A stretch of 56,972 nucleotides of DNA from a virus (IMGVR_UViG_3300018839_000093:1-56972), one strand, 5' to 3'; counted from the stretch's first letter, positions 3,387 through 48,239 are shown. Program-made: numbers and translations. Notes: a model not told the origin generated them from the letters alone.

Positions 3387-3563
3387 TTGCGATGATTATT
3401 TATGCAGTCATTATTGCGGTCCCCGTATGTTTAATTATTGACGCAAACGACGTAGAGACGGTATTAATTGCAGTTCTTAGTTCTCTTATCGGTGGGATAT
3501 TATCGGCATTTTATCCATCAAATAACGAGAAAGTATGCTGAAAATTACGGAGGTGAATCGCAA

Positions 3564-4325
3564 ATGACAACGAACGAACAACGCTGCCTGCTCGCAAGCC
3601 GTTGCAAATTAGCGGGCGGAAGCGCGTGCCATAGCCAATGCGCGCATTTCGTCGCGCTGCACGGCATGAGCGGAACGGGCGGACGGTCAGGCGCCGCCAA
3701 TCTACCGCGCGACTACCGGCTTGTCAATGCGCAAAACTCACCCGCGCGAGCAAGCCAAGCGGAAGTTTATCGCATGGTTGACGCTTATATAAAAACGTTC
3801 GAGCGCCAATTTGACGATAATGCGTCCCGCATCAAGTCGCTTTATCTTTACTCGGAATCGCCGGGTACGGGCAAGACGACGACCGCCTGCGCCATATTAA
3901 ACGAATGGATCGTGGCGCATTATCTAGGCAGTTTAAAGCGAGGCTTGCAGCCATTGCAGGTGCCGGCATTTTTGCTCGACGTAAACGAGTGGCAGACGCT
4001 ATATAACGAATTTAATCGCGCCAATGTGCCGTCCGACATTGCCGAGCGGGCAAGCCGTGAATATTATCGGCAAATGCAAAGCGCCAAGCAAGCGCCTTTT
4101 GTCGTGCTTGACGATATAGGCGTGCGGACGGCGACGGAAGGATTCCGCGGAGATTTGCACAGCGTGATTAATGCGCGTGTAACGAACGGAATGCCGACGA
4201 TTTATACGTCCAATTTAGCGATTGAGGATATGGCGCGGATATTTGACGCAAGGCTATACGATAGGATGCGCGACATGTGTGTCGTGTTGGAATTCGGAGG
4301 CGAAAGTCGGAGGGGGAGACGTTGA
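3564..4325 (+). CDS. DnaC/IstB-like helicase loader ATPase
   Basis: N-terminal Cys/His cluster, Walker A SESPGTGKT, Walker B VVLDDIG, IYTSN, RLYDR; GGAGGTGA RBS before ATG 3564. Confidence 0.88.
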   Translation: MTTNEQRCLLASRCKLAGGSACHSQCAHFVALHGMSGTGGRSGAANLPRDYRLVNAQNSPARASQAEVYRMVDAYIKTFERQFDDNASRIKSLYLYSESPGTGKTTTACAILNEWIVAHYLGSLKRGLQPLQVPAFLLDVNEWQTLYNEFNRANVPSDIAERASREYYRQMQSAKQAPFVVLDDIGVRTATEGFRGDLHSVINARVTNGMPTIYTSNLAIEDMARIFDARLYDRMRDMCVVLEFGGESRRGRR

Positions 4326-4507
4326 TGGAAGCGGAAATAGCGGAGTTATTAAAGAATAACGGATATTCCGTTGTAAATACAGTTAACGTTTGGTCGAACG
4401 GTCGTAAAATTCGGAGATACTCGGGACAAGACGAACAAAGCGTTTGGCATAATCCGAAAGACGGTTACCGCAAAATGGTCGCAATTTTAGTTGAGGTGCC
4501 GAAATGA
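4325..4507 (+). CDS. Hypothetical protein
   Basis: GGAGGGGG RBS, coupled start. Confidence 0.5.
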   Translation: MEAEIAELLKNNGYSVVNTVNVWSNGRKIRRYSGQDEQSVWHNPKDGYRKMVAILVEVPK

Positions 4508-4965
4508 CCGCCCGCCAATTCAAATTCGGCGACCTCGTCCGCGTTGCCGGATATGACGAGCGTATATTTCAAATTGACGGATGGCGCGTTGAACATTATT
4601 ACTATCCGGACGCAGAATGGACGGAGCATGTTTTCGAATTAACGGACGTGCATAGCGCGGAATGTCTCGAGGCGGACGAGGAGGACTTGGAATTAGTAGA
4701 AAAGGCGGAAAAGGCGGCGGAATATATGGCGAAAGTGAAGGGCGGTGAGGGGCCGATGTTAATATTCGATTTTAGCGGAGGCGGAAGGCAATCGCGAGTA
4801 TCGCCCGAGATTGAGCGGTTTAATAAGGCGCGGGAACGTGAACGCAAGGTGAACGAATTGCTGGACGAACGGAATGATGTACGGATTTTGCACGAAATGT
4901 TTGGCGACGATCAGTATAAAAGGCGTATTGAGGAAATTGATAAGGAGTTGCGGAGTGTAGAGTAG
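4504..4965 (+). CDS. YodN-like hypothetical protein
   Basis: FKFGDLVRV N-terminus and VNELLDERND...FGDDQY C-terminus. Confidence 0.6.
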   Translation: MTARQFKFGDLVRVAGYDERIFQIDGWRVEHYYYPDAEWTEHVFELTDVHSAECLEADEEDLELVEKAEKAAEYMAKVKGGEGPMLIFDFSGGGRQSRVSPEIERFNKARERERKVNELLDERNDVRILHEMFGDDQYKRRIEEIDKELRSVE

Positions 4966-4988
4966 AACGAAATTACGAAGGAGTGGGT

Positions 4989-5141
4989 ATGGAAATGGGT
5001 TATCATGTTTACGACCACAGAACAGGAGAAATTTTGTTTTCAAGTGAAGATGACCTGCAATGTATTCATTTTATGAATGAGGTTTACAAAAAAGATGAAG
5101 AACTAGCAGAACATATTTGGTTGAAGGAAATTACTGCGTAG
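4989..5141 (+). CDS. 50-aa AT-rich cassette gene (not in ORF track)
   Basis: AAGGAG RBS; MEMGYHVYDHRTGEILFSSEDD...; bracketed by conserved motifs. Confidence 0.6.
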   Translation: MEMGYHVYDHRTGEILFSSEDDLQCIHFMNEVYKKDEELAEHIWLKEITA

Positions 5142-5234
5142 TCCGACCTTACAGAGTTGAACGAAAATACAAATCAAATACAACGGAAGTTATAGGACTG
5201 TGTAAGCCATAAGTAAAAGATAGGAGGTGTCTGC

Positions 5235-5450
5235 ATGTCACGTATATATGAATTAATTAGAAGAAAACCTAACAGATGGGGAAACATCACTATAAAAGAA
5301 TTTGAAAGAGATATAAAATTACTACAAGAGACATGCCGTATTTATGAGGATGCTTTAAGAGAGATTGACACACATATAAGATCCACCGAAAAACCAGTAA
5401 AATATATAATTGAAACATTAAAGTCTGTTCTACCTGAATATAAAAATTAA
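5235..5450 (+). CDS. AT-rich hypothetical cassette gene
   Basis: AGGAGGTG RBS; bracketed by the same motifs. Confidence 0.65.
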   Translation: MSRIYELIRRKPNRWGNITIKEFERDIKLLQETCRIYEDALREIDTHIRSTEKPVKYIIETLKSVLPEYKN

Positions 5451-5519
5451 TAAACCAAAATAAAATCATAGTTCGATCTTTTCGCGTAACAAAATTAATT
5501 CAACGGAGGTGTAGACGAA

Positions 5520-6875
5520 TTGCACTACGGTCAAATGTTACTATCGAAAATAATCGACCAAAACGACGTCCAAGCGCTCAAGCGATACGCCATTGATGAG
5601 GCGCATTTCACGACGGAAGGCGAACGCGAGGTATTCCGCTTTATTCAGTCCTATGCGCAAGCAAACGGCGGACAAGCGCCCGACTTCCGAACAGTCGTCG
5701 CGGAATGTAGCGCGTTCGATTATCAGCCGAACGTCGAGGATTCTTACGAATTTTTGGCGCGCCAAGTAAAAGAGCATGCCGCCAAGCAAGAATACGTCGA
5801 ACTTTTTAGCGGTGATCGTGCGGAAGCTGTCCGACGTTTTGAGACGGAAAAAGATTTTAAAAAATATATAGAGTGGTTGACGGACGAACTAGAACGTATT
5901 AAAATAAGAACAGATGTTCGTAAAACAGTCGGAACAGATTTGCAGACGATCGGCGAAAAGTTCCTATCGGAATACGAACGGCGCAAAGAAGGCGAATCAT
6001 TCCGTTTATGGAAATCGAAATTCCGCTTTATTAACGAATCCGTCGGCGGTTATATCAGCGGAAATTTATACGTGCCTTACGGAAAGAGCGGCCGCGGTAA
6101 GTCCGTATTCACGTTGGAGGAAGCAATTGAAGCCGCCATGCAAGGCGCGAATGTGCTGATTTGGGCGATGGAAATGCCGTGGTTCGAGGTATGGGTGCGT
6201 ATATTTACGAGCATTAGCGGACGTCAAGGCATCACGACCGCCAATATGCACGGCATGGATTTGACCGCAGGCTTTGACGCAACGGAAATCCGTCATGGCA
6301 AGCTATCGGCTGAATTCGAAACGGCTTTTCGTTATTTTGTCGAGAATATTAACGAGCAAATCGCGGGCAATATTACGGTGCGGGCGGTCGACGACGAGGA
6401 CTTTAATTTGCGAACATTGAAGGCTTTAGAGGCGGATATTCTAACGACGAATGCGGACGTGGTCGTGATTGATCCGTTTTATTACCTCGACTATGAGCGG
6501 AACACGAGTAAGACGACGGGCGGCGATGCGGCAGAAACCAGCAAGAAATTGCGCAGGCTGGCTGGGCGCACGCAGACGGTAATTTTTGCGATTACGCAGG
6601 CGGACGAAGGGCGCGAAGATAAGGACGAGGACGGCAATCGCGAATTAAAATTGCCTGCGCGTGAGGACGTCAAGAAAACGAAGCAACTGCTCGAGGATGC
6701 GTATTTATTAATCGGCGTCGATACGGACTATAAGCAAGGGCGCGGGCTTATCGGACTTAATAAAGGGCGCGATGGTGGTGAAGGGATATCGGGCGAAATC
6801 CTTTATATTCCGCAGGTAGGAATCGTGCGTGAGCCGGAAACGGGCGAGCAGGCGATTAGCCAATTCGAGTTTTAA
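5520..6875 (+). CDS. Replicative DNA helicase (DnaB-like, SF4)
   Basis: Walker A GKSGRGKS, AMEM, VVVIDPFY, ITQ, LNKGRDG. Confidence 0.92.
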   Translation: MHYGQMLLSKIIDQNDVQALKRYAIDEAHFTTEGEREVFRFIQSYAQANGGQAPDFRTVVAECSAFDYQPNVEDSYEFLARQVKEHAAKQEYVELFSGDRAEAVRRFETEKDFKKYIEWLTDELERIKIRTDVRKTVGTDLQTIGEKFLSEYERRKEGESFRLWKSKFRFINESVGGYISGNLYVPYGKSGRGKSVFTLEEAIEAAMQGANVLIWAMEMPWFEVWVRIFTSISGRQGITTANMHGMDLTAGFDATEIRHGKLSAEFETAFRYFVENINEQIAGNITVRAVDDEDFNLRTLKALEADILTTNADVVVIDPFYYLDYERNTSKTTGGDAAETSKKLRRLAGRTQTVIFAITQADEGREDKDEDGNRELKLPAREDVKKTKQLLEDAYLLIGVDTDYKQGRGLIGLNKGRDGGEGISGEILYIPQVGIVREPETGEQAISQFEF

Positions 6876-6992: not shown

Positions 6993-7946
6993 ATGGACTA
7001 TTATATTGACGTCGAAGCCGAACTTCGCGAATTTGAATGGACTCGCCCGCGCTGGACCTCCGACAAACTAATCGCCGCATCACCTTTTCGCTACGACAAA
7101 ACGCCATCCTTTTTTGTCCGACTCGCACCGCATGGCAAATTTCCAGCCGGCACTTGGGCGGATAGCGGCGCATACGACAATGAATGGCGAAGCGGCAACT
7201 TCGTCAAGCTATTGGCGTTTTTGCGGAACGAAAGCTACGAGGAAACGGAAGAATATCTGCGGACAAAATACGCGCCACGTTTCGATGGTTCAATCGCATT
7301 TATTCCGCCACGATTCCGAATTGAGCGTGCTAGGCAGGCGCTTAATCTCGATATAAGTCCGGTTATATCCGATTATTTAATTAATAGAGGAATAAGCGAA
7401 GAAGTACAGCGCATGTTTGGCGTAGGCTATGACGCGGCACAAAAGGCAATCATCTTGCCGTGGCGTTTAGCCGACGGACGCCTAGCCAACGTCAAATATC
7501 GCAAAACTTTCGGCAAGGCGTTTTGGTACGAGCGCGACGGTTGGCCTATCCGCGAGTTAGTTTTCGGTATTAATTTATTTTATTATTGTAAACGTTCCCA
7601 AGCGGTCATATGCGAGGCGGAAATTGATGCGCTATCCTTTTGGACGGCAGGCATACCGGCCATAGCGATCGGCGGCGCGACATTTAATGAAATGAAGCGT
7701 GACATAATCTTGCGGTCGCCAATCGAGGAATTAATAATTGCGACGGATAACGATAAGGCGGGCGAGCGATTGCGGGCGGAAATTGAACGAATGATGAAGG
7801 GGCGAATGCGGTTGAAGAACGCGAGAATCGAAGGCGGATGGAAAGACGCGAATGAGGCGTTAATAAAAGGCGGAATCGAGCCGTTAAAGCGGGCGGTTGA
7901 GCAGGCAAAAAGTTGCCGAGTTTTTACGTCATTTGCGCCGCGGTAA
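6993..7946 (+). CDS. DNA primase (TOPRIM domain)
   Basis: SPFRYDKTPSF, YLINRGI, ICEAEIDALS, IATDNDKAG, KDANE. Confidence 0.9.
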   Translation: MDYYIDVEAELREFEWTRPRWTSDKLIAASPFRYDKTPSFFVRLAPHGKFPAGTWADSGAYDNEWRSGNFVKLLAFLRNESYEETEEYLRTKYAPRFDGSIAFIPPRFRIERARQALNLDISPVISDYLINRGISEEVQRMFGVGYDAAQKAIILPWRLADGRLANVKYRKTFGKAFWYERDGWPIRELVFGINLFYYCKRSQAVICEAEIDALSFWTAGIPAIAIGGATFNEMKRDIILRSPIEELIIATDNDKAGERLRAEIERMMKGRMRLKNARIEGGWKDANEALIKGGIEPLKRAVEQAKSCRVFTSFAPR

Positions 7947-7954
7947 GCCGAATA

Positions 7955-8185
7955 TTACTTACCGTTTTTAGCGTCAACCCATTCGTAAAGGTCCTCAATC
8001 GTACAGCGAAGGACGTCGGCGATGTTTTTAGCGTGTTGTAAGCGCATGACGTAACGGTTGTTAGCGTAGTCGGTTATTTGTTGGCGTGGTATGCCGACGC
8101 GATCCGCTAACTCCGTTTGCGTTAAACGGCGCTGTGCGAGGAGTTCCTTTAGACGGCATTTACCCGGCTTTAACGTCGAAACCAC
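7955..8185 (-). CDS. XRE-family HTH transcriptional regulator
   Basis: LTQTELADRVGIPRQQITDYANN...CTIEDLY; start codon uncertain (see findings). Confidence 0.85.
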   Translation of the reverse strand: MVSTLKPGKCRLKELLAQRRLTQTELADRVGIPRQQITDYANNRYVMRLQHAKNIADVLRCTIEDLYEWVDAKNGK

Positions 8186-8205
8186 CTCTTTTGTGCAATA
8201 TTAAG

Positions 8206-8406
8206 TTATTTTATTTTTATACGAACGACTTCTTCTATCGGAACTTGTAATGCAATACAGATACGTTCAATTTTTTCTAGTGGTATGGATTCGTTTTTAT
8301 TGATTTTAGCAATAGTTCTCGGATGAATGCCATATTCTCTTAAAGCACTTATAACCAACGATTTCTTTTTTAGCGTATCTTTTAAAGGTTCGTAACTAAT
8401 ACCCAT
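8206..8406 (-). CDS. XRE/Cro-like HTH regulator, candidate repressor
   Basis: ISYEPL...IHPRTIAKINKNE...IERICIALQVPIEEVV; divergent from aimR. Confidence 0.85.
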   Translation of the reverse strand: MGISYEPLKDTLKKKSLVISALREYGIHPRTIAKINKNESIPLEKIERICIALQVPIEEVVRIKIK

Positions 8407-8434
8407 AAAAATCTCCTACTTTTTATTAGAATTT

Positions 8435-8452
8435 TGTTCCACTTTTGGAACA
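8435..8452. promoter_or_regulatory. Palindromic operator TGTTCCA-N4-TGGAACA
   Basis: Perfect 7-bp inverted repeat in the divergent xre/aimR gap, just upstream of TATAAT; near-copy at 9880. Confidence 0.7.
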
Positions 8453-8537
8453 TTTGTGTTATAATCATGTTAACGAACCAGACAAATATACCACACCTTA
8501 ATTAAAATTACTAAATTATAGGAAAATATTCAAGGGG

Positions 8538-9683
8538 TTGATGCAGATGTTAAAGAAAATAATGTATTCGATTACTGAAAGTATTGATAAGGATATTAAA
8601 CAACAAGAAATTGCATCTGCTATAAATAAAAGCGAATCAAGAATCAGTAAATTTTTTAATGAAGATAAGGATTTATATTTTTGCGATATGTTACTAGCAA
8701 TTAAAAAATACGCCCTTGATAAAGAAGATGAGTTAGTAAATCAATGCATTGATTATTATTTACATGATTTTAATGTGCAGCCTTTTAACGTAAAGTGCAT
8801 TTTAGATTATTTATATAATAAAAGGAATGTTACAGGTATTCAAAACGTTTTAAATCGCATTAAAGGGAATGGAAATAGGGAAGTTAAGGATTGGTATAAT
8901 TTATATAAAATTGCGATTAGATATTTAATTGCTAATAGTAAAGATGATTTTAAGAAAGTTAATTTAGATTTAGAATCTTATTCTCCAAAATACGAAGAAA
9001 CAAAGATTTTTAAAGAGTTATTACTTACATATGTAAGTTATCAATTACGATATTATAATCAATTGTTTGAAAGAGCTACTAATCTTCAGGAAAAAATTGA
9101 TTTATTAAAAGATGGTTATATGAAGGAGAGTTTAAAAGTCAAGTTAGCAGATGTATTAGATTATGCGTATTTACATTTTAAAGGAGATACTGAAAAAGCA
9201 AGAGAATACGCAAAAATAGTTCAAGAATCCCAATATGTTTGCGCGACTTTTAAATATAACACGTATTATGTAATGGGTACATCCTACTTCTTTGAAGATT
9301 ACAACAAGGCCATTGAAAATTTGACAACCTATGTAAGCCTTCTAAATAAGTATAACTTTACAGAAAGGGCCCACCTTATTTCAGAGGATGACATAGCGTT
9401 TGTACATGCTTTTTGGAATAATGATCGATCAATGGTTAGAACTGATGATGTACTCGTTCAAGGTTACTTTGAGGCTAAACACGGCGATAAAGAGAGAGCA
9501 GTTGAATTAGTCTCAAATGAACCGGATAGTCCCTTCAAAAATTGTATTCTAGGAATCGCAAAGAGAGATATTTCGTATTTATACGAAGCGATCATAGAAT
9601 TTAATGAAAGAGGGGACAAGCATATGGCTAAATTGCCAAGAATAGAATTAGAGATTATTAAAAAGGAAAAAGGAGAGGGTTAA
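8538..9683 (+). CDS. aimR: AimR-like arbitrium receptor (RRNPP family, HTH + TPR)
   Basis: ~380 aa, N-terminal HTH (QQEIASAINKSESRISKFFN), helical TPR-like body, C-terminal AKLPRIEL; immediately followed by a secreted peptide ORF. Confidence 0.82.
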   Translation: MMQMLKKIMYSITESIDKDIKQQEIASAINKSESRISKFFNEDKDLYFCDMLLAIKKYALDKEDELVNQCIDYYLHDFNVQPFNVKCILDYLYNKRNVTGIQNVLNRIKGNGNREVKDWYNLYKIAIRYLIANSKDDFKKVNLDLESYSPKYEETKIFKELLLTYVSYQLRYYNQLFERATNLQEKIDLLKDGYMKESLKVKLADVLDYAYLHFKGDTEKAREYAKIVQESQYVCATFKYNTYYVMGTSYFFEDYNKAIENLTTYVSLLNKYNFTERAHLISEDDIAFVHAFWNNDRSMVRTDDVLVQGYFEAKHGDKERAVELVSNEPDSPFKNCILGIAKRDISYLYEAIIEFNERGDKHMAKLPRIELEIIKKEKGEG

Positions 9684-9685
9684 AG

Positions 9686-9832
9686 ATGAAAAAGGTTCTA
9701 TTAGTGTTGACATTAGGGTTAGTAATTTACGCAGGTTCACATTTCTCCCAAAAACAAGTAGCTAGCGACGTAACGCCTCTATGGACTTGTCCAGGAGGAA
9801 ATGGCGGTACAGGCGGAAATTGTTCAGGCTGA
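9686..9832 (+). CDS. aimP: AimP-like secreted pro-peptide, 48 aa (not in ORF track)
   Basis: MKKVLLVLTLGLVIYAGSHFSQKQVASDVTPLWTCPGGNGGTGGNCSG; signal-peptide N-terminus, AGGAGAGG RBS, followed by a terminator. Confidence 0.82.
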   Translation: MKKVLLVLTLGLVIYAGSHFSQKQVASDVTPLWTCPGGNGGTGGNCSG

Positions 9833-9854
9833 TTTAAATAACTATTACTGATCG

Positions 9855-9880
9855 CACCCTTTTATTAGGGTGTTTTTTTT
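9855..9880 (+). terminator. Rho-independent terminator after aimP
   Basis: CACCCT-TTTATT-AGGGTG followed by T8. Confidence 0.85.
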
Positions 9881-9897
9881 GTTCCACAAGTTGAACA
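9880..9897. promoter_or_regulatory. Second copy of operator, TGTTCCA-N4-TTGAACA
   Basis: Same half-sites and spacing as 8435-8452, one mismatch. Confidence 0.65.
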
Positions 9898-9984
9898 TTT
9901 TGACAATTGAAAAAATAATCAAATTACATAAATTTATCCATTTTATATTGTATTATCTAATTACAAAATAAATTTAATAATTTT

Positions 9985-10014
9985 TGCGCGAGTATAATTA
10001 CCCAAACGTATAAT
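9985..10014 (+). promoter_or_regulatory. Putative phage-sigma promoter TGCGCGA-N13-AACGTAT
   Basis: Identical bipartite motif and spacing at 21263-21289 upstream of phoH. Confidence 0.55.
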
Positions 10015-10044
10015 TATATGAAAGCGCTAAAAGGAGGAAATTAT

Positions 10045-10659
10045 ATGAAACAAAACAAACAACTAAATAACTTGGTAATGATGTACAAGCTATCTCCAAA
10101 TGACGAAATTTTTACGAAAATCTACGAAACTATTACGCAAACCTGGCGCAATCTTGAAACCGTAGCAAAATCAGTTCGCGCCGATATCCACGAAATAACC
10201 GCGCTATATGAAGATGTACTTCTAAAATGCATTGAACGCTACAACGGACAACAAGATTTCATCAATTTTTACCGATTCAGTTTAACTAGGGCAAGAGCGG
10301 ACTTATACCGCAAGAAAAAAAGGCAATATGATCGTGAATATTACGAATCACCAGCAGACCAAGAAAGTGATTTATTCGAAATTCTATGCGCTACTGACGA
10401 AGATACGACGGCGGCAACCGTTATATCAAAAAAAGAAGCCGACCAGCGGCAACTGATCGACTTCCTATTGAGTGGCGCAGATGAATTAACGACGGCAATC
10501 GTTAAAGAATTCTTGGAACATCCGAAACTAACGCCGACGGCAATCGGCAATAAGTTAGGGTTGCACCACTCGACAGTTTCGCGCAAATTAACTCGCCTCG
10601 CAAGCAAGTATGATTCTAAACAGTTCGGAGATTATACCGACTATTTAGTTGCGCTTTAA
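10045..10659 (+). CDS. Phage sigma-70-like transcription factor
   Basis: Region-2-like LLKCIERYNGQQDFINFYRFSLTRARADLYRK; C-terminal HTH TAIGNKLGLHHSTVSRKL; AAGGAGG RBS before ATG 10045. Confidence 0.72.
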   Translation: MKQNKQLNNLVMMYKLSPNDEIFTKIYETITQTWRNLETVAKSVRADIHEITALYEDVLLKCIERYNGQQDFINFYRFSLTRARADLYRKKKRQYDREYYESPADQESDLFEILCATDEDTTAATVISKKEADQRQLIDFLLSGADELTTAIVKEFLEHPKLTPTAIGNKLGLHHSTVSRKLTRLASKYDSKQFGDYTDYLVAL

Positions 10660-10665
10660 TTTAGA

Positions 10666-10705
10666 AAGAGTGGTACTGCGTTTAGGCATTACGCACTACC
10701 CTCTT
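10666..10705 (+). terminator. Stem-loop after the sigma-like gene
   Basis: AAGAGTGGTACTGCGT...ACGCACTACCCTCTT imperfect hairpin; no clear U tract. Confidence 0.45.
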
Positions 10706-10788
10706 ACGATTATTATAGTTTAGAAACTACACAACGTAAACAATATTATTAAATTATTTTATTATTGTCAATGGGAGGATTGAACGAA

Positions 10789-11049: not shown

Positions 11050-11500
11050 TTATACGCGGACGCACGTCCGCCAGTCGTCACGAAGGCAGTCGTTCAAAAT
11101 AACGCAGGCTAAACGAAAAACAGTCGGCGGTCGGCTCATGTGGCGGGCGTGAGAAATAATCGTTGGTTGGGCGGAGGCTGGATTAGGCAACTGTCTGCGC
11201 CGAGCCAACGAACTTTCTTGCGTCGGCTAGCGATTATTTGTGGCAGCGGAATGCCATAGGCGCTCGGCATAAGTCCATAAGTAGTCGCCAGCGGGCGCAA
11301 GATTTGCGGAAATGGGCCAGCGTTATTAGACGCGAAGGTAAGTGGGAATGGTTTTGGTGACATATTTAATGTCCGAATGCGTGGAGCACAACCAAGTTCT
11401 ACCGATTAGGCAGTGGCCGAAAGCATCGGTAAGTGCGCACCTTTTCCGCATGAGCGCTCGTAAATGCCGATGGGCGACGGCTATAATATCGTCCAATTAA
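11050..11500 (+). ncRNA. Large structured RNA or leader upstream of the SSB gene, family unassigned
   Basis: GC-rich with no credible ORF; helices with G-U pairs on the + strand: 11154-11170/11223-11239, 11291-11312/11443-11461, 11264-11270/11464-11470, plus local hairpins. Confidence 0.65.
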
Positions 11501-11520
11501 TATTCGAAAGGGGAATGTTC

Positions 11521-12240
11521 ATGACGAAGTACCAAAGTGGCGCAGACGCGCTAAACGCATTAAACTCAACGGGGGATAGCGGAACAAAGACGGAATTTAC
11601 GTCGTTCAAAAGCGGAAGTTCATTCATCGTTAAGGTTCTAGGAACGGCGGATTTAATTCAGTTTTTCAGCTACGGAATTTTTAAGCAAGTCAACAGCTTT
11701 GTTGCGAAAAATCCGTCCAAAAAGTCCGCGAAAGGCTATCCGGTCGAAAACTTGACGCCGTGGGATAAGGCGTGGAAATACCACAAGGACTTGTCGCAAG
11801 ATTTTAGCGATCATCACGGACAAGAGGCGTCCAAATATCGCGCCAAAGAACGCTATGCAATGGGCTTTTTCGATTTAACAACGGGCGAGCCGATTATCGT
11901 CGACTTATCTAAAAAGCAGGCGCAAGCCGTGCATGACGTCATTAAAAAGTACGAGAAGAAACTCGGCAAAGTGGCGTTTGAATTATCGAAGCAAGGCAGC
12001 GGACAGAATACCGTCGTTAGCTTAACGCCAGTCCTCGATATGGACGAAGATTTGACGGCAGAGCAACGAACTAACTTCGATAAAGCGCCGGAATCGTTTG
12101 ATATGAGCCTATTTGACGGCATCTTATACGAGTTAGACGACGCGGAACAGATCGAACTATTGAAAAAAGTCGGCTTTGACGTCAGCTTAATCGGCTATGA
12201 TGCGGATGCAAAAGCGGACGACCCAACGGAACAATTTTAA
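11521..12240 (+). CDS. Single-stranded DNA-binding protein (gp32-like)
   Basis: Position before polA, KQGSGQNTVVSLTP, acidic tail ending ADDPTEQF; GAAAGGGG RBS. Confidence 0.65.
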   Translation: MTKYQSGADALNALNSTGDSGTKTEFTSFKSGSSFIVKVLGTADLIQFFSYGIFKQVNSFVAKNPSKKSAKGYPVENLTPWDKAWKYHKDLSQDFSDHHGQEASKYRAKERYAMGFFDLTTGEPIIVDLSKKQAQAVHDVIKKYEKKLGKVAFELSKQGSGQNTVVSLTPVLDMDEDLTAEQRTNFDKAPESFDMSLFDGILYELDDAEQIELLKKVGFDVSLIGYDADAKADDPTEQF

Positions 12241-12406: not shown

Positions 12407-12802
12407 ATGGCGCATGACACTTCTACTAAAGGTCGCCATGCAGAATTGGTTGCAATAACCGCCTTACTTGCGAATGGGTTTATCGTAATGGAACCAACTG
12501 CGCCTGATGTGTTCGACTTAGGAATAACTAGACCAGGTTGGACAGAATATAAACGCGTTCAGGTAAAGACCGCCAGACCTCGTGAAAAGGAAGGCGTAGA
12601 TTGGATAATTGTTACAGGTAAGAAATCAAATGGTGATAATTACTCCCTAAATGAAATCGATTATTTTATAGGAGTATATAACGGAGTTGCGTATATGTTC
12701 CGAAATGAAGGATTAACCGAATATTGGTGTAAAATGTCAGAGCTAGATATAAAATGGACGCGATTGGACGCAAGCATAGCGAATTTAAAGGAGGCGATAT
12801 AG
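12407..12802 (+). CDS. PD-(D/E)XK endonuclease (free-standing, homing-endonuclease-like)
   Basis: KGRHAE...FDL...KRVQVKT...YSLNEIDYF pattern. Confidence 0.7.
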   Translation: MAHDTSTKGRHAELVAITALLANGFIVMEPTAPDVFDLGITRPGWTEYKRVQVKTARPREKEGVDWIIVTGKKSNGDNYSLNEIDYFIGVYNGVAYMFRNEGLTEYWCKMSELDIKWTRLDASIANLKEAI

Positions 12803-13360: not shown

Positions 13361-13539
13361 GCCTATATTGCGCAAACTGTAACGAGGAAATTAACGAAAA
13401 TCAACGTTGCTATATCGACGAATATATGGACCAAGCGTTTTGCACCCGTTCATGCTTTCGCGATTGGGCAACGGATAACCACGAAGTTATTGCGAATTGG
13501 TACCGCAAGCTATATTTGAGCGAGAGTGGCGGCGCATGA
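13357..13539 (+). CDS. Small Cys-rich protein
   Basis: CANC...FCTRSC; ATGA coupling on both sides. Confidence 0.6.
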   Translation: MSLYCANCNEEINENQRCYIDEYMDQAFCTRSCFRDWATDNHEVIANWYRKLYLSESGGA

Positions 13540-15719
13540 ATATCCGCTTAAAATTAAACGACCCAGCGGGCGTTGATGCGCAAGAACGAATCAAGCAGGC
13601 GGTCGAGCGCAAGAAGGCAGCGACCGAAACAATGGCGGAAGCATGGGAACGCATCATGGCGATGAAAAACGGTGAGGCGGATAGGCAGCGTCTTATGGAG
13701 GTTAAGGCGGCGATGGAGGCGGGGCTAATTGGCAGGCATCCCGCCGACGTTGCCAAACGGTTTAGCAAGGCGGAAGCGCTTCGTTTATGGCGCGACTTGC
13801 AGGAACGTCAGCGCGAAGAAACGTTGCGCAAAATGGTCGAGAATACGCCGGCGAATTACGAACTAATAACGACGGAACGGCAATTCCGCGAGTTATTAGA
13901 GTCGCTAGGCAGCGAGGATATTATTGCGGTCGATACCGAGACGACGGGCGTAGATGTTTATACGGATCAAATCGTCGGCATATCGTTCAGTTTGCCGCGA
14001 GCCAACAAGCACGTTTATATACCGGTTGCGCATGCAGACGCCGAGCAACTTGATCGCGACTATGTACTGAACGGCTTAAAACCGATATTGTATGACGAAT
14101 CAATCGGCAAGGTACTTCATAACGCCATATTCGATATTGCGATGTTCCGACGACATGGTTCGGACTTGCGCGGCGTTATATGGGATACCATGACCGCGAT
14201 GCACCTGCTTAACGAAAACGAAGAATCGTTCCGCCTAAAAGATTTAGCGCCTAAATATCTCGGCGTTGAATCGGACACGTTCGAAACGCTATTTGGCAAG
14301 GATGCGCAATTTCGCGAAATACCGCTAGATATTGCGCTAGTTTACGCCGCCAAAGATACGGACTTAACGTGGCGCCTATATCAATTCCAGCGGAAACATT
14401 TCGAGAAATTGCCGACGATTCTTCGCTATTATCAGACGGTTGAAGTGCCGTTGCTATACGTGATTGTCGATATGGAAGCCAACGGCTATGTCCTCGATTT
14501 AGATTTCGCAAAATCATACGGCGAACAGTTGCGCAAGCGTGCCGAGGAATTAAGTGCGGAATTAATTGCGGAATTGACACCTTATCATGAAGGCGATGAA
14601 CTGCTGAACTTAAATTCACCGCAACAAATGCGACCGGCATTATCAAAAGCGATCGGGCAAGAACTTCCGAACATGGACGCCAAGCGGACGTTAAAGCCTT
14701 TGGCGGCAAAGCATCCGATTATTGCGAAATTACTAGAATACAAGAAAATAACGAAGCTATCCGGCACTTATATTGACGCCTTACCGCAAAAGCAAAATCC
14801 GACGACCAAGCGATGGCACTCGCGCTTTAATCCGATGGGAACGGTCACGGGGCGATTTAGTTCGGGCAAGGACGAGGACGCGGGCAACGAGCAACAATTT
14901 AACGTGCAAAACCAGCCGCAAGAAGCGCGTCCAATGTTTGTTGCGCCGCCAGGCAAAGTTCTTATTAGTGCGGACTTTAAAGCGCAGGAAATTCGATGCG
15001 TTGCGTATTTAAGCGGCGAGCCGGTTCTAATTAACGCTTTTCTCGAAGAACGCGATCCATACGCGATGATGGCGGCGAACTTCTACAAGCGACCGTATGA
15101 GGAAGTCTATAAAAACGCGGACGGCTCAGACACGAAAGAGCGCAAGCAAATGAAGGTCGTTTGGTTGGCGACGCTTTACGGCATGAGCAAATATTCGCTC
15201 GCGGAAATGCTAGGCGTTGACGTGAATGCGGCCGTCAAATTTCAGTCCGATTTGTTTAAGTCCATGCCGAAACTAAATGCGTGGATTGAATCGAACAAGA
15301 AATTCGTTGAGCAATACGGCTTTGTATGGATGGATAATCAAGCGCGGAAAAGACGTTTGCCGGACGCAAAAATTAAATTGCGTGGCTATGGAGATCCGAA
15401 TTTTAGCAAGAAGAACCGCGCGCTACGTCAAGCGACAAATGCCCGCGTGCAAGGTAGTTCGTCCATTCAGACGAAAGTGACGATGATTCGTGCCTATGAA
15501 ATGTGTGAGCGGAAAGAGGGCTGGCGCTTGTGGGCGACCGTTCATGATGAACTGATATTCGAGGCACCCGAAACGTTGACGCACGAAGATATAAAGGACG
15601 TATATGACATCATGGTCAATTCGTATCGGTTTGGCGATGTACCGAACGGTACGGACATCGAGATTATGCGTAGGTGGGGCGAAGGTATGACAGTCGATAA
15701 ATGGTTTGAGTCGCGGTAG
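13536..15719 (+). CDS. polA: Family A DNA polymerase with 3'-5' exonuclease
   Basis: ExoI DTETTG, ExoII HNAIFD, ExoIII YAAKD, TGRFSS, motif A DFKAQEIR, motif B RKQMKVVWLATLYG, motif C VHDEL. Confidence 0.95.
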   Translation: MNIRLKLNDPAGVDAQERIKQAVERKKAATETMAEAWERIMAMKNGEADRQRLMEVKAAMEAGLIGRHPADVAKRFSKAEALRLWRDLQERQREETLRKMVENTPANYELITTERQFRELLESLGSEDIIAVDTETTGVDVYTDQIVGISFSLPRANKHVYIPVAHADAEQLDRDYVLNGLKPILYDESIGKVLHNAIFDIAMFRRHGSDLRGVIWDTMTAMHLLNENEESFRLKDLAPKYLGVESDTFETLFGKDAQFREIPLDIALVYAAKDTDLTWRLYQFQRKHFEKLPTILRYYQTVEVPLLYVIVDMEANGYVLDLDFAKSYGEQLRKRAEELSAELIAELTPYHEGDELLNLNSPQQMRPALSKAIGQELPNMDAKRTLKPLAAKHPIIAKLLEYKKITKLSGTYIDALPQKQNPTTKRWHSRFNPMGTVTGRFSSGKDEDAGNEQQFNVQNQPQEARPMFVAPPGKVLISADFKAQEIRCVAYLSGEPVLINAFLEERDPYAMMAANFYKRPYEEVYKNADGSDTKERKQMKVVWLATLYGMSKYSLAEMLGVDVNAAVKFQSDLFKSMPKLNAWIESNKKFVEQYGFVWMDNQARKRRLPDAKIKLRGYGDPNFSKKNRALRQATNARVQGSSSIQTKVTMIRAYEMCERKEGWRLWATVHDELIFEAPETLTHEDIKDVYDIMVNSYRFGDVPNGTDIEIMRRWGEGMTVDKWFESR

Positions 15720-15745
15720 AACGAAATTGTGAAGGAGGAAATATC

Positions 15746-15883
15746 GTGGAAGAAAAAATTATATTCAAGTATTCATGTATCGAGTGCGGTGCAGAGTTCC
15801 AAAGTGAAGGCGAAAAGCTAATATATTGTGATTCAGAGAAATGCTTGGATAAAGACCATCGTTTAACTTTTATTACTGAATAG
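15746..15883 (+). CDS. 45-aa zinc-ribbon cassette gene (not in ORF track)
   Basis: AAGGAGG RBS, GTG start, CIECG...CDSEKC; bracketed by cassette motifs. Confidence 0.6.
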   Translation: MEEKIIFKYSCIECGAEFQSEGEKLIYCDSEKCLDKDHRLTFITE

Positions 15884-15926
15884 TTCGACCTTAACACGCA
15901 ATAAATTCGAAAAAGGACGTGATTAA

Positions 15927-16928
15927 TTGAGTCAAGATGTAGCGAATCAGATAGCGCAACACTTTACCGATTATTTAAACGAATGGCACTCGATTCCCGA
16001 AGTATTCGATAATGAATTAGACGCGCAGCTTCATCGGTGGTATGCCGAAGTTAAGCCCGTCTTTCCGAAAAAGCCGTACTTCTCGCCGTCGTCGATTAAT
16101 TCGTGCCAGCGCGAACTATATTTAAAAACGATCGGCGCCAAAAAGGACAACTTTCCGCGCCCGCCCTATCAAGCGCGCTGGACTCGGATTGGAACGGCTA
16201 TCGGCGACATTATACAGCGCGACCTACTAATCGCGGAACGCCACTACGAGCGCTTAACCGGCAAGCCTGCGCCATTTGTATTTGAGCGCGACGAACAAGG
16301 ACGTCCAATGTTCGAAGATTTTGCAAAGCGTAACGTTCCAGTCCATTATCGCGGCCATACATTTTATCTATACGGCGCGCCTGACGGCATTATGCGCTAT
16401 ATAACGCCTGATGGCGAAGTTATACGAATTGGCCTCGAGGTCAAATCCAAGCAAACATCCGCAAGCAAAACGTCTGTTTATTCGATGAATGAGGCGGAAC
16501 TAAAGCACGTCAAGCAAACGATCGGCTATTCGAAAATGTATGACGTTGATTATTATTTGATTCTTTACGTGAACGCGGCTAAAAAGGCGTGGGTTTATAG
16601 CGACAGCGATTTCGAAAAGAATCCGGATATTAGGGCGTTCGGTTTACATTTTACGGAAGCCGACCGCGAGCAGCTTTACGAATATGTGGCGGATATATTG
16701 GACGCGGTAAAGGCGAAAAAGCCGCCAGCGCTCGATTTAACGAAATGGACGTTCAACAACTTTAAGACGGCGAGCGCTTTGTCGCTAACGGACGATGAAT
16801 TTGACGAAATTAAAACGTATGTGCGACGAGTATTAAAGTCCGGCTTGCCTAACCATGAGAAGGAACAAACGCTAGACGCTTACGAGTTTATTAAGGAAAT
16901 ACGGGAGAAGGAGGATGTGATTAGGTGA
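15927..16928 (+). CDS. PD-(D/E)XK exonuclease (Cas4/RecB-like)
   Basis: FSPSSINSCQRELY, GTAIG, GAPDGI...LEVKS, Q...Y motifs. Confidence 0.75.
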   Translation: MSQDVANQIAQHFTDYLNEWHSIPEVFDNELDAQLHRWYAEVKPVFPKKPYFSPSSINSCQRELYLKTIGAKKDNFPRPPYQARWTRIGTAIGDIIQRDLLIAERHYERLTGKPAPFVFERDEQGRPMFEDFAKRNVPVHYRGHTFYLYGAPDGIMRYITPDGEVIRIGLEVKSKQTSASKTSVYSMNEAELKHVKQTIGYSKMYDVDYYLILYVNAAKKAWVYSDSDFEKNPDIRAFGLHFTEADREQLYEYVADILDAVKAKKPPALDLTKWTFNNFKTASALSLTDDEFDEIKTYVRRVLKSGLPNHEKEQTLDAYEFIKEIREKEDVIR

Positions 16929-17155: not shown

Positions 17156-17347
17156 ATGGACGCATTAGAAGCAGTTGAAAAATTAGCGAAATTGAATGAG
17201 CGAATCGACGCGTTAGATTCCGCTTACAATTACTTGTGGGATGAATTCGAATTACGAACTACTGCGCTTTTAATAAGTGAAATTCGAGAGGAATTGAAAG
17301 AAGAACGCGGAATACTCGAGGAAAAATTACGGGCGGTGCAATTATGA
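17156..17347 (+). CDS. Hypothetical coiled-coil protein
   Basis: AGGAGG RBS. Confidence 0.6.
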   Translation: MDALEAVEKLAKLNERIDALDSAYNYLWDEFELRTTALLISEIREELKEERGILEEKLRAVQL

Positions 17348-17844
17348 CCCGAATTCTAGCCTTCGACATATCCGCAAGCCCCGGCGTCGCCGTCCTCGAA
17401 ATCAAAAAGAATCAACCGCGACTGCTGTTCGCCGATTCCATCAAAACGGACAGCAAGACGCCCGACAGCCAACGCTTCGCCTACGTTGAAGCCTTCGCCA
17501 TTAAAACGATCCATGAATACGGCCCATTCGACCATGTGATTCGCGAACATTTTACGAAGGGCAGTTCGAAACGCTCGACGCAACTAGTATTCGGCTCATG
17601 GGCGATGATAGATTCGGCGCTTGGTCGCTACGGTTATAAAGTGGACGCGGAAATAACGCCCACGTCCGTCAAAAAAATCGTCGGCGGCAAAGGCGGTGCG
17701 GAAAAGAACGAAGTGGCGGATGGCGTACGGCGCATCTTAAAATTACCCGCGGACTATGCGTTCAAGTCGGACGACGCGAGCGATGCGGTGGCGATTGCGC
17801 TGGCTTGGGCGATAGATAGCGGTTTAATAAAGCGGAAGGAGTGA
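17344..17844 (+). CDS. ruvC: RuvC-like Holliday junction resolvase
   Basis: ILAFDIS, IRE, TPTSVKKIVGGKGGAEK, DDASDAVAIA. Confidence 0.85.
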   Translation: MTRILAFDISASPGVAVLEIKKNQPRLLFADSIKTDSKTPDSQRFAYVEAFAIKTIHEYGPFDHVIREHFTKGSSKRSTQLVFGSWAMIDSALGRYGYKVDAEITPTSVKKIVGGKGGAEKNEVADGVRRILKLPADYAFKSDDASDAVAIALAWAIDSGLIKRKE

Positions 17845-18039: not shown

Positions 18040-18230
18040 GTTTGCTGGCGGATTTAGAACGGATGCTGGCGGACTTAAATCGTCAGCTTGAGGAAAATGG
18101 CGAAGATATAGCACGCTATAACGAGCGCTTGCAGGAGTTATATCGCGAGCGAATCCGCATATATGACGGAATTGTCGGCATTGAAGCCGAGATTAAAAAG
18201 CAACGAAAAGAAACGGAGGAATCAGATTGA
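18036..18230 (+). CDS. Small coiled-coil protein
   Basis: Coupled ORF. Confidence 0.55.
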   Translation: MSLLADLERMLADLNRQLEENGEDIARYNERLQELYRERIRIYDGIVGIEAEIKKQRKETEESD

Positions 18231-18646
18231 CAACGTTATTAACCGATCATTTTATCGAAAAATATCCGGATTTCCCAGCGCACATGAATGCGCTAGGACA
18301 ATTCGTTTACTACCGCACCTATTCGCGATTTTTGCCCGAAAAGAAAAGACGCGAAACATGGAAGGAAACATGTCGCCGAGCAACGGAATATAACGTTGGG
18401 CTTGCGGTAAGGCACCTCGAAAAAATCGGTTATAAGGTCGATTACGAGAAATATCGCAAAGAGGCGGAGGAATTCTTCGATAATATGTTTAATCTTCGCC
18501 AATTTTTAAGCGGACGCACACTTTGGGTAGGCGGTGCTGATGGCGGAGTAGCCGAGAAATATCCGCTATCTAATTTTAACTGCTCATACGTATCGATTCG
18601 CAGCTGGGACGACTTATGCGATTTATTTTATTTGTTACTTGTCGGT
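18227..18646 (+). CDS. nrdJ: Class II (adenosylcobalamin) ribonucleoside-triphosphate reductase, exon 1
   Basis: FVYYRTYSR, RETW, SGRTLW, FNC; ends LLLVG at the 5' splice site. Confidence 0.9.
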
Positions 18647-19416
18647 AAGTGAAAACCTGTGCCGACATTAAACCGTGTGAACCGCTGCCAGCGGGTGTCT
18701 ACGAAAGTAGGCTAACGGGGAAACCTTAACGCTTTTGGCGAAGGCAATCCCGTGCCAAGCGTCTAATAGTCGCCTAAATGGAGGCGATAATATGGAAAAT
18801 TGGAAACCGGTAAAAGGATACGAAGGATTATACGAGGTAAGCGATTTTGGGAACGTTAGAACTCTTGATCCGCGACACTATCAAACAGTAAAAACACAAA
18901 AGAAAAACAAGGACGGACATATGCGCGTATGGCTTTCACGTAATTCAAAGAAGCGACCGTTTTTCGTACACCGTCTTGTCGCAATCAGTTTCATACCCAA
19001 TCCTGAAAATAAGCCAGTTGTAAATCATATTGACGGAAATCCTTCAAATAACCACGTCAGTAATTTAGAATGGTCAACACGTTCCGAGAACGATAAGCAC
19101 GCATTCCGTTTAGGCATGCGAAAGCCATCAAACGGTGGAACAAATAAATATGTTGTCCGAATAGACAAATCCGGGAAAGAAGTCATTTATGATTCAATGT
19201 TACGAGCAGCTAGAGAAAACGAGTTAAGTGTTGGACTAATTTCGTACTACACGAAAACAGGGCGACAATACGGTAATTATAAATGGCGACTATTAGACGA
19301 AGGTGTAACGACTATCCGAAAGGAGTAGGGCGGTAGATTGGCAACCGTTCGAAGCGCACGGGACGTTAATTAACGTCAAGATATAGTCTGTGCCCGTAGA
19401 AATACGGGATTCTCCG
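18647..19416 (+). mobile_element. Group I intron (770 nt, IA-like) in nrdJ
   Basis: P1 GTCGGT/GCCGAC with U-G at the splice site; P10 CCTGT/ACAGG; P3 CCGTGT/GCACGG; P7 GACTAT/ATAGTC; P9 CCCGTA-GAAA-TACGGG; terminal G19416; splicing restores LLLVG-TGVGFKS in frame. Confidence 0.93.
18792..19328 (+). CDS. Intron-encoded NUMOD4-HNH homing endonuclease
   Basis: WKPVKGYEGLYEVSDFGNVR (NUMOD4), VHRLVA...VNHIDGNPSNNHVSNLEW (HNH). Confidence 0.92.
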   Translation: MENWKPVKGYEGLYEVSDFGNVRTLDPRHYQTVKTQKKNKDGHMRVWLSRNSKKRPFFVHRLVAISFIPNPENKPVVNHIDGNPSNNHVSNLEWSTRSENDKHAFRLGMRKPSNGGTNKYVVRIDKSGKEVIYDSMLRAARENELSVGLISYYTKTGRQYGNYKWRLLDEGVTTIRKE

Positions 19417-23679: not shown

Positions 23680-24121
23680 TATCGTAGCAAAGTTCGCATT
23701 GTTTACGCAATTCATGAGCGTATTTACGCCGACAACCTATTCCGTCCTTACTAGCGCGGAGGCACAAGCGGAATATTGGCAGAATCAAGCAGACGATTGG
23801 CAAACGTTCGAGGCGACCGCCTATACCGCGCGTTGCGAAGGCTGTACGGGCATTACCAAGACGGGCTATGACGTACGCCATACGATTTATGCGGAGGATG
23901 GGCGGCGCGTGATTGCGGTTGATCCGTCAATTATTGCGCTAGGCTCGACGGTTGAAATACGGATGGCGGACGGCAGAACGTTCGAGGCGGTGGCGCTCGA
24001 TATTGGTGGCGCAATAAAGGGCGAGCGAATCGATATTTTAGTAGATACGAAGAATGACGCATATCAATTCGGTAGGCAGGACGTTGAAGTGCGGATATTA
24101 AACGAAGGAGGGGCGGAATAA
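23669..24121 (+). CDS. 3D-domain cell-wall protein
   Basis: N-terminal signal, ATAY, IAVDPSIIALGS, DIGGAIKGERIDI. Confidence 0.85.
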   Translation: MRISIVAKFALFTQFMSVFTPTTYSVLTSAEAQAEYWQNQADDWQTFEATAYTARCEGCTGITKTGYDVRHTIYAEDGRRVIAVDPSIIALGSTVEIRMADGRTFEAVALDIGGAIKGERIDILVDTKNDAYQFGRQDVEVRILNEGGAE

Positions 24122-24317
24122 TGCATCCGATTTATACAACGTATTTGGATATTAACGATAATGTAGAGGAAGTAATTCGAGTATTTGACCGGTTAAAGAT
24201 TCCGTTCAAACTAGAAACGGAAAGAAGAAAAGTACGAATTTTTGAACACGCTAATCATACGGCAGAAAGGTTGCAGTATAAATTAACGATATTAAGCGAA
24301 GGAGGGGCGGAATAATG
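24094..24317 (+). repeat. 30-bp direct repeat GATATTAA(A/G)CGAAGGAGGGGCGGAATAATG
   Basis: Copies at 24094-24123 and 24288-24317, one mismatch. Confidence 0.9.
24121..24315 (+). CDS. Hypothetical protein flanked by 30-bp direct repeats
   Basis: ORF between repeats at 24094 and 24288. Confidence 0.65.
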   Translation: MHPIYTTYLDINDNVEEVIRVFDRLKIPFKLETERRKVRIFEHANHTAERLQYKLTILSEGGAE

Positions 24318-30762: not shown

Positions 30763-30960
30763 ATGAATATAATCGTATGCGATAATTGCCAGCGCAAAAT
30801 TTATACGGAAACTAATGGATTTAAATTAGGACAGCCGTTTATGCTAACGGTTACGCAGCAAGAAGGATTTAACGCATATAAGCACGACCTTAATCAAGAG
30901 CCGGTCCGGCATTTTTGCAGCAGACGATGTCTAGGCGAATATTATACGAATACTCCATAG
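30763..30960 (+). CDS. Small Cys-rich protein
   Basis: CDNC...HFCSRRC. Confidence 0.6.
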   Translation: MNIIVCDNCQRKIYTETNGFKLGQPFMLTVTQQEGFNAYKHDLNQEPVRHFCSRRCLGEYYTNTP

Positions 30961-30994
30961 TTCGGATGTAATAAAATTTAGGGCGGTGTATAAA

Positions 30995-46181: not shown

Positions 46182-46201
46182 AACGAAATGGAGGCGATTT
46201 T

Positions 46202-47932: not shown

Positions 47933-48002
47933 GTGACACATTTAATAAAATATAGATTAAAATATTAACAAATACCCCATAAATTGTTAAAATATTATAG
48001 GG

Positions 48003-48221
48003 GTGGTTAATATTAACAGTAATTCAAGGGATCATTTAAAAGTCATTCTTGGGATTACTAAAAGTAATAAGACAACAAAAAGATGTCGTGATTGCTTGTT
48101 TCAAAATAAAAAGATTTGCCAAATTCACCAAATAAAAATACATCATGATGATTACTGTAATAGATTTAATAATATAAAAAGAATAAAAGTAGTAAATGGC
48201 GGTTTAATATCGTCAAAGTAG
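48003..48221 (+). CDS. Small Cys-rich AT-rich protein
   Basis: CRDCLF...CQIH...YCNRF; start codon uncertain. Confidence 0.5.
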   Translation: MVNINSNSRDHLKVILGITKSNKTTKRCRDCLFQNKKICQIHQIKIHHDDYCNRFNNIKRIKVVNGGLISSK

Positions 48222-48239
48222 GAAGTTACTGCGCAATAA

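Follow-up and report, generated by a model that had tools for sequence, protein, structure and literature searches.

In T4-type phages, promoter-early stem-loops (PeSLs), which combine a sigma-70 promoter with a stem-loop terminator, have been described as repeated intergenic units that reach from an upstream stop codon to a downstream Shine-Dalgarno sequence and start codon and that flank small ORFans in variable regions (Arbiol et al. 2010, PMC2839356; Comeau et al. 2014, PMC4122927). As outlined in these two reports, PeSL copies recombine, for which no dedicated recombinase is required, and this gives rise to insertions, deletions, replacements and mini-circles. For lambdoid phages, short conserved boundary (linker) sequences have been proposed to serve modular exchange (cited in PMC3029335). 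Integron cassettes, as summarized in the sources cited here, have an attC site, whose imperfect palindrome forms a hairpin in single-stranded DNA, and the system includes IntI (PMC3053210, PMC5027507, PMC2095811). In the present study three small open reading frames (ORFs), named cassettes c1, c2 and c3, were analyzed, which are bracketed by the same pair of short border motifs in the virus record IMGVR_UViG_3300018839_000093. The window, i.e., the whole stretch that was analyzed, is one IMG/VR record of 56,972 bp, which is classed as a provirus and estimated to be 95% complete. It represents a temperate siphovirus-type phage, and nearly all genes are located on the + strand. The replication genes form a single tightly packed + strand operon, and this replication module is interrupted by the three small ORFs, which are AT-rich (GC content of c1 0.35, c2 0.28 and c3 0.34) in comparison to most long ORFs of the window (0.43-0.54).

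The left motif GTWGAACGAAAWT is present in three exact copies (4962-4974, 5156-5168 and 15716-15728), and the same is true for the right motif TAGTYCGAYCTT (5139-5150, 5469-5480 and 15881-15892); all six copies are on the + strand. Left and right copies pair in order around the three ORFs, with the right copy 165-313 bp after the left copy. The presence of the motifs is non-random: when the window was simulated 200 times with a third-order Markov model, the exact left motif had a mean of 0.055 copies and the exact right motif a mean of 0.025 copies, with a maximum of one in both cases. When up to two mismatches were allowed the excess was weaker, with 19 matches versus 11.6 ± 3.5 for the left motif (3 of 100 shuffles reached 19) and 25 matches versus 14.2 ± 3.7 for the right motif (none of 100 shuffles reached 25). 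The 8-base cores alone were not enriched genome-wide (TAGTYCGA, 9 versus 4.3 expected; GAACGAAA, 10 versus 7.6). In the sequence-only reading of this stretch, which had interpreted it as a tandem of integron-like gene cassettes with a recombinase acting in trans, the motif strings and coordinates were all correct. It was also verified that AT-rich small genes lie behind the exact left motifs at 4962 and 5156 and end at right motifs, and that the same pair brackets an unrelated gene 11 kb away, which is c3 (15716/15881). The proposal that the left and right motifs are imperfect inverted repeats held in part: there is some match (7 of 9 positions for c3 and 6 of 9 for c1 and c2 in direct reading), but it is weak, and an alignment as direct repeats fits too (8 of 12).

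A comparison of c1 and c3 revealed an identity of about 90% in the flanks, but no relationship between the proteins encoded by the interiors. The left ends are identical at 20 of 22 positions (GTAGAACGAAATTnnGAAGGAG) and the right ends at 19 of 22 (ATTACTGnnTAGTyCGACCTTA). For the two proteins no BLASTP alignment was obtained, and their global score was 12 versus 16.9 ± 5.7 for shuffles. Both c1 and c3 matched only themselves among 5.8 billion proteins. For c1 there was no Pfam match at E ≤ 0.1 and there were three PHROG matches (E 0.007-0.07), each of unknown function, and for c3 there was a weak zinc-ribbon hint (E 0.009, below the cut-off). The positions of the motifs relative to the genes are precise. 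In five of the six copies the upstream ORF stops at the TAG of the motif, while TTG occupies this position in the sixth; this holds directly for the gene 4504-4965, c1, DNA polymerase I (PolA) and c3, and for c2 the TAG is in frame behind the stop codons TAA TAA (Table 1). In c1 and c3 the left motif leads directly into a Shine-Dalgarno sequence and the start codon. The left-type motif of c2 begins 5 nt past the 12-base right motif of c1 (4 nt past the 22-mer).

To characterize the origin of the ends, they were compared with the contexts of all gene starts and stop codons in the window and in the related loci L004-L097, of which L004 and L005 are the nearest relatives. The left 22-mer of c1 shared 20 positions with c3, 17 with the helicase start of L004 and L005, and at most 16 with the other 1248 (1252 gene-start contexts). 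With a 28-nt c1 start region, c3 and the L004/L005 helicase start shared the top score of 21 of 28, compared with at most 19 elsewhere (1253 gene starts). Because the c1 start region scores highest with c3 and with these helicase starts, the left motif of site 1, between the gene 4504-4965 and the helicase gene, is derived from the backbone: the left border is largely the ancestral helicase start region, which serves c1 today. The ACGGAGGTG core of this ancestral region is retained at the start of the present helicase gene. Outside of the window the best matches of the c1 right 22-mer were 15-16 of 22, at five orthologous junctions of Bacillus-type relatives, and the rest reached at most 14 (1290 other contexts); among the 1292 stop-codon contexts c3 had 19 of 22 and the next best had 16 of 22. 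At site 2, between PolA and the gene 15927-16928, the start region GAAAAAGGACGTGATTAATTG of the latter is backbone sequence common with L018 (19 of the 19 final bases). A homologue of this gene in a related phage is annotated as "exonuclease".

An allele swap was found in the relatives. Of the 79 loci obtained with the 15927-16928 protein, 10 contain in front of PolA a small ORF in one of two unrelated alleles (five plus five), with near-identical flanks and with the right breakpoint at (A/G)GTAGTCCGAA. This junction, in related Bacillus phage-plasmids, is a look-alike of the c1 right motif. The swapped ORF, which lies directly upstream of PolA, is membrane-protein-like (L031/L028 versus L024/L043, about 1400-1720 in L031 and L024). 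In the window itself a 30-nt direct repeat of a stop/start junction (29 of 30 identical; 24094-24123 and 24288-24317) brackets an AT-rich ORF of 64 amino acids (24121-24315), and this ORF represents a further type of bracketed mini-gene in this genome. A search for relatives of the 3D-domain gene, which was intended to test this repeat, found none.

The interpretation favored here, with a probability of about 50%, is that the borders are short homologies at which recombination swaps promoterless mini-genes in the replication operon, similar to the T4 PeSLs or to boundary sequences. Small promoterless AT-rich genes would be slotted into the two intercistronic junctions, i.e., gene 4504-4965/helicase and PolA/15927-16928 gene, and the shared ends would be the intercistronic junction sequences of these slots. 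The left junction leads from the upstream TAG stop via AACGAAAWT to the Shine-Dalgarno region, and the right junction consists of the cassette's own TAG stop and TYCGAYCTT. These junctions of 12-28 bp would serve as homologies, so that general or phage-encoded recombination could replace, add or delete the gene between them. This recombination may be homologous or microhomology-mediated, including slippage between the direct copies that are spaced 194 bp and 330 bp, and it might have copied the slot type to a second site. We infer recombination at these sequences, the enzymes that perform it and the direction of transfer. Mini-gene slots of this kind would lead to ends of about 90% identity around unrelated interiors, and to a left end that is homologous to a backbone start region. 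They would also account for the tandem of c1 and c2, in which either gene could be lost precisely through the direct repeats at distances of 194 and 330 bp, for the allele swap in the relatives, and for the bracketed ORF 24121-24315. The window encodes candidate recombination nucleases, namely a RuvC-like resolvase, a PD-(D/E)XK-type match and the 15927-16928 gene product.

The gain and loss of tiny ORFan genes by phages without breaking tightly packed operons is poorly documented outside the T4-type phages. One genome with the same two border sequences at two loci, together with a related border at an allele swap of distant relatives, is a compact and testable case of short junction homologies as exchange points in temperate Bacillus-type phage-plasmids. 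If the borders direct exchange, they could help to predict the sites of accessory genes, which often act in host takeover or anti-defense, and phage engineering could use them as landing pads. The finding would be ordinary if they are expression signals only.

To analyze the variability of the two junctions, 14 IMG/VR helicase loci and 79 loci for the 15927-16928 protein were compared (40-75% protein identity). None of these 93 related loci encodes c1, c2 or c3. The GTDB genomes contained one relative, with 71% identity (a Robertmurraya locus), and the protein identity of all relative loci was 40-77%. In INPHARED and PLSDB, relatives with 64-80% nucleotide identity were Bacillus, Sporosarcina and Paenibacillus phages and Bacillus plasmids of 27-65 kb; short-query searches with the cassettes in the INPHARED phages and the PLSDB plasmids gave chance-level matches. 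The distance between the 4504-type gene and the helicase gene varies across the relatives from 26 bp to about 0.9 kb, and PolA is separated from the exonuclease-type gene by 82 bp to more than 1 kb. The two junctions contain between nothing and about 1 kb of other small genes, often between duplicated ribosome-binding junctions. Scans for the motifs with four patterns came out negative, with zero matches in the IMG/VR records covered, which may not include those very near the window. Likewise, the loci scans of the relatives yielded no copy of either motif at a gene border, and a whole-record scan of five relatives yielded no further border copies. Copies of TAGAACGAAAAT in L021, L022 and L070 are within coding sequence and were dropped as chance matches, and five more sense-strand TAGTYCGA copies in relatives were intragenic or in a stretch without a long ORF.

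Sequencing runs were also inspected. Coverage of the region by the source run X1 is even, with a word depth of about 890-930 in most bins. In run X2 relatives of 80-95% identity are present, and parts without cover in this run are not evidence; runs X3 and X4 contain almost no matching sequence. One X2 contig of 702 nt and about 95% identity matches only the window positions 15880-16266, so that its match starts one base before the right motif of c3, and its remaining approximately 300 bases do not resemble the window. The ends of two short X2 contigs are near 4957, which is five bases ahead of the first left motif. Both positions, 15880 and 4957, adjoin motif copies, which is no more than a hint to breakpoints there.

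Several points weigh against short-homology exchange. For RecA-type recombination, 12-28 bp of homology is short, and no single-strand annealing protein was found. Alternatively, the ends could be conserved because of a role in expression. The best relatives are 57-77% identical at the protein level, which is too distant to show breakpoints in this lineage, and the X1 contigs, which drop rare variants, show no joint that skips a cassette. The X2 hint comes from contig ends and alignment ends. The junction in the Bacillus group is a single independent event, and the 8-base core is not unusual, as TAGTYCGA occurs 9 times versus 4.3 expected. Beyond the core, the similarity among five right-hand flanks was not significant: the score was reached by 138 or more of 1000 shuffles in 8 of 10 pairs, and by 17 and 20 of 1000 in the remaining two, uncorrected. 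Finally, neither motif is present at the 10 viral loci that encode c2 homologues, and therefore the motifs do not travel with the c2 gene family. This family has 22 homologues of c2, and their common part comprises only the C-terminal approximately 35 residues, while the N-termini are unrelated. Its members (P0003-P0024) are small phage and Bacillota proteins with the conserved sequence ALREIDTHIRSTSEPVPYIIETLKxTLPEYK; one Peribacillus protein matches the N-terminal half of c2 instead. An Atlas search with c2 revealed nothing above chance.

An alternative explanation, which is considered unlikely, is that the motifs are expression signals kept by selection and that their position around the cassettes is a by-product. 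The left motif would then be a start-region element (stop codon, AACGAAAT, Shine-Dalgarno sequence) that couples translation, and the right motif would be a post-stop spacer or a binding site. This would fit to the coincidence of the TAG with the upstream stop codon, and to the observation that five of the eight + strand GAACGAAA copies are located between genes (4965, 5159, 10782, 15719 and 46181). It would also fit to the third exact copy of TAGAACGAAAT (three copies versus 0.11 expected), which precedes a tail-fiber gene without a matching right motif. In addition, the motifs are asymmetric, one-stranded and intergenic, which resembles the stoperators of mycobacteriophage L5. On the other hand, the left copy of c2 is remote from its start and is followed only by a 12-codon, TTG-initiated frame, and there are only three plus three copies, none of them in the regulatory region 7950-10770. 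Furthermore, a start signal does not need 20 of 22 identical positions that reach into the stop codons of two different upstream genes. RNA structure also speaks against this explanation, as the RNA folds of the three cassettes had z values of -0.05, -0.45 and +1.14 and no Rfam family was found; the idea of an RNA element was rejected for the lack of a match and of a fold signal. Two further ideas were abandoned: an ECF-type promoter, as the window has a weak ECF-sigma-like ORF but the motif is not followed by a consistent -10 element, and read-through or suppression, which led nowhere as there were no tRNA genes in the window.

Signals for transcription were searched at both sites. A consensus scan, which covered sigma-70-type promoters only, revealed neither a + strand promoter-like nor a + strand terminator-like site in 4400-5700. 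The c3 cassette also has no + strand promoter-like or terminator-like site, and in 15300-16300 the sole + strand site resembling a terminator is located at 16100, within the gene that follows. As the cassettes are devoid of their own + strand promoter or terminator, they are probably transcribed as part of the replication operon.

Quite improbable is a site-specific exchange of cassettes, in which the approximately 35-bp junction of c1 and c2 (TAGTCCGACCTTACAGAGTTGAACGAAAAT) would be the recombination site, half-sites would be present at the outer borders, and a recombinase of the host Xer-type or encoded outside of the window would act in trans. The motifs are oriented, lie exactly at gene borders and bracket single genes, and the cassettes are promoterless and have one orientation, as in integrons. 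The junction of c1 and c2 contains a loose inverted repeat, GTCCGAC-N8-GTTGAAC, with a match of 5 of 7 in the arms. However, the other two right-hand junctions are non-palindromic (2 of 7), and the left borders lack the first arm and have no full site. Single-strand DNA folds of the three junctions on both strands did not reveal a hairpin (six folds, z +0.38 to +1.79; 125-196 of 200 shuffles fold at least as well). The absence of a recombinase from the window, which had been part of the sequence-only reading, was confirmed for the 55 ORFs scanned with Pfam (every ORF of at least 170 amino acids apart from PolA and the tape-measure gene): none belongs to an integrase, resolvase or transposase family, and no tyrosine or serine recombinase was found among these ORFs. 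As the record is classed as a provirus and a 191-kb contig carries its proteins, the recombinase could adjoin the window. The motif scans described above and the homology of the left motif to an ordinary start region in relatives also argue against a dedicated site. Taken together, discrete single-gene units with conserved ends at junctions that vary in relatives remain from the proposed cassette exchange system, but a dedicated site-specific mechanism does not, and with the left motif being a stop codon plus ribosome-binding region and no attC-like hairpin present, the integron-like reading is not supported. A test for insertion sequences or miniature inverted-repeat transposable elements was negative as well: the ends match inverted at only 6-7 of 9 positions, no target-site duplication flanks the units, and Pfam revealed no transposase.

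In a related version, which is highly doubtful, the phage would possess a cassette platform without an integrase, and a bipartite junction of about 30 bp (TAGTYCGAY - spacer - GTWGAACGAAAWT) would be the true site, cut by a host or neighboring recombinase or by a phage nuclease. If true, such a platform would move ORFan mini-genes between junctions of essential operons and between phages without disturbing the flanking expression. That c1 and c3 are old duplicates of one cassette, whose ends were kept while the interiors diverged past recognition, is very improbable, as the similar lengths (50 and 45 amino acids) and a weak nucleotide similarity of the interiors (global score 15 versus 7.7 ± 2.5 for codon shuffles, 44 of 3000 reaching 15; at most 11 in the 26 control comparisons, which used 13 other small genes) are opposed by the total lack of protein similarity, by the strong selection on at least 22 bp per end that approximately 90% identical ends with a saturated interior would require, and by c2, which would be left unexplained.

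The features of the two sites and of their surroundings are summarized in Table 1. The weak look-alike of the right motif may possibly have arisen by chance. Another look-alike, GTTACTGCGCAATAA at 48225, was dropped because both of its 8-mers are common in the window, and an extension of the right motif to a unit of about 30 nt shared with L007 and the Bacillus group failed shuffling tests.

Table 1. Positions of border motifs, cassettes and neighboring genes in the window
Feature	Position	Strand	Remarks
DnaC/IstB-like loader	3468-4325	+	replication module
YodN-like gene (match below cut-off)	4504-4965	+	upstream backbone gene, left flank of insertion site 1
Left border of c1, GTAGAACGAAATTACGAAGGAG	4962-4983	+	TAG 4963-4965 = stop of gene 4504-4965; GAAGGAG = c1 Shine-Dalgarno sequence
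c1, ORFan of 50 amino acids	4989-5141	+	likely start ATG 4989; ORF caller begins at GTG 4983
Right border of c1, ATTACTGCGTAGTCCGACCTTA	5130-5151	+	TAG = c1 stop codon
Left-type motif of c2, GTTGAACGAAAAT	5156-5168	+	67 nt upstream of c2 start; no Shine-Dalgarno sequence beside it
c2, ORF of 71 amino acids	5235-5450	+	
Right motif of c2, CATAGTTCGATCTT	5467-5480	+	TAG in frame 18 nt after TAA TAA; 48 nt upstream of helicase start
DnaB-like helicase	5520-6875	+	right flank of site 1
Toprim primase	6993-7946		replication module
PD-(D/E)XK-type endonuclease match, just under cut-off	12407-12802		
DNA polymerase I (PolA)	13497-15719	+	stop codon = TAG of c3 left border
Left border of c3, GTAGAACGAAATTGTGAAGGAG	15716-15737	+	TAG = DNA polymerase I stop codon
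c3, ORFan of 45 amino acids	15746-15883	+	CxxC...CxxxxC pattern
Right border of c3, ATTACTGAATAGTTCGACCTTA	15872-15893	+	TAG = c3 stop codon
Gene matching PHROG labelled "CRISPR/Cas system associated"	15927-16928	+	right flank of site 2
RuvC-like resolvase	17344-17844		replication module
Weak right-type look-alike, TAGTTCGGATGT	30958-30969	+	stop of ORF 30763-30960; 14-15 of 22 to right 22-mers
Third exact TAGAACGAAAT copy	46179-46189	+	stop of tail gene 45378-46181; without matching right motif

Several other features of the window were observed. Directly after the third TAGAACGAAAT copy an AT-rich tail-fiber block begins (46202-48221), which encodes a beta-helix protein of 576 amino acids (46202-47932) and an ORF of 72 amino acids (GC 0.36 and 0.26); it looks like a swapped host-range module. 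An AT-rich block at 7955-10659 is an arbitrium-like communication module with an AimR-family receptor (8538-9683, Pfam E 7e-40), an ORF of 48 amino acids in the AimP position (9686-9832), two divergent HTH genes on the - strand (7955-8185 and 8206-8406) and an ECF-sigma-like ORF (10018-10659, E 5e-07, below the cut-off). A 25-nt AT-rich repeat is present inside the primase gene (7568-7592) and at both edges of this arbitrium/sigma block (8199-8223 and 10747-10771), and an X2 relative skips 7568-7636, beginning exactly at the first repeat copy. At 18227-21258 an HNH/NUMOD4 homing-type endonuclease ORF (18735-19328) is located between ribonucleotide reductase ORFs for the alpha domain (18227-18652) and the barrel domain (19390-21258). 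This suggests that the reductase gene is split or interrupted by an intron; no Rfam intron was called in this region. A ParM/actin-like (ParM/ALP-like) segregation protein is encoded at 52726-53553, and the plasmid matches (H43-H50) are the 27-65 kb Bacillus plasmids. Because of the ParM-like gene, the plasmid relatives and the lack of a detected integrase, the phage is probably a phage-plasmid, despite the provirus classification of the record, and possibly does not integrate at all. The largest unexplained gene of the window (54453-56972) encodes a phage-conserved protein of 839 amino acids (phrog_5156, E 8e-209) without a Pfam match, and for this protein as well as for the ORF 11464-12240 no PDB or NCBIfam match was found.

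Compared with known systems, the borders differ from stoperators, which are present in tens of copies of one asymmetric site genome-wide and are bound by the phage repressor, in that the window has three exact copies each of two different motifs. The cassettes resemble phage morons as small AT-rich accessory genes between backbone genes, but classical morons bring their own promoter and terminator, which the cassettes lack on the + strand. With integron cassettes they share that they are promoterless single-gene units in one orientation, with c1 and c2 in tandem. An integron attC has R''/L''-L'/R' boxes, extrahelical bases and a length of 57-141 nt, and an attI site with the Pc promoter is located upstream of the array. 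In contrast, in the window IntI is absent from the scanned ORFs, a folding attC is missing, the sigma-70-type consensus scan of 4400-5700 revealed no + strand site for an attI/Pc platform, and the ends of 12-22 bp overlap stop codons and ribosome-binding sites. Among the described systems, the PeSL cassette of T4-type phages is the closest. As far as the cited reports describe PeSLs, the units of the window are similar in being located at the borders of ORFans in variable regions and in reaching from stop codon to Shine-Dalgarno sequence. Unlike PeSLs, the window cassettes have no + strand promoter-like or terminator-like site and no stable fold, and the units are shorter (12-35 bp), have three plus three copies and are located within the essential replication operon of a temperate siphovirus-type phage. 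The boundary-sequence model for lambdoid phages, as it is cited, shares with the proposed mini-gene slots that short conserved border sequences are the exchange points between unrelated modules; it is a model and not a defined family, whereas here the same border pair is present at two loci of one genome, around single mini-genes.

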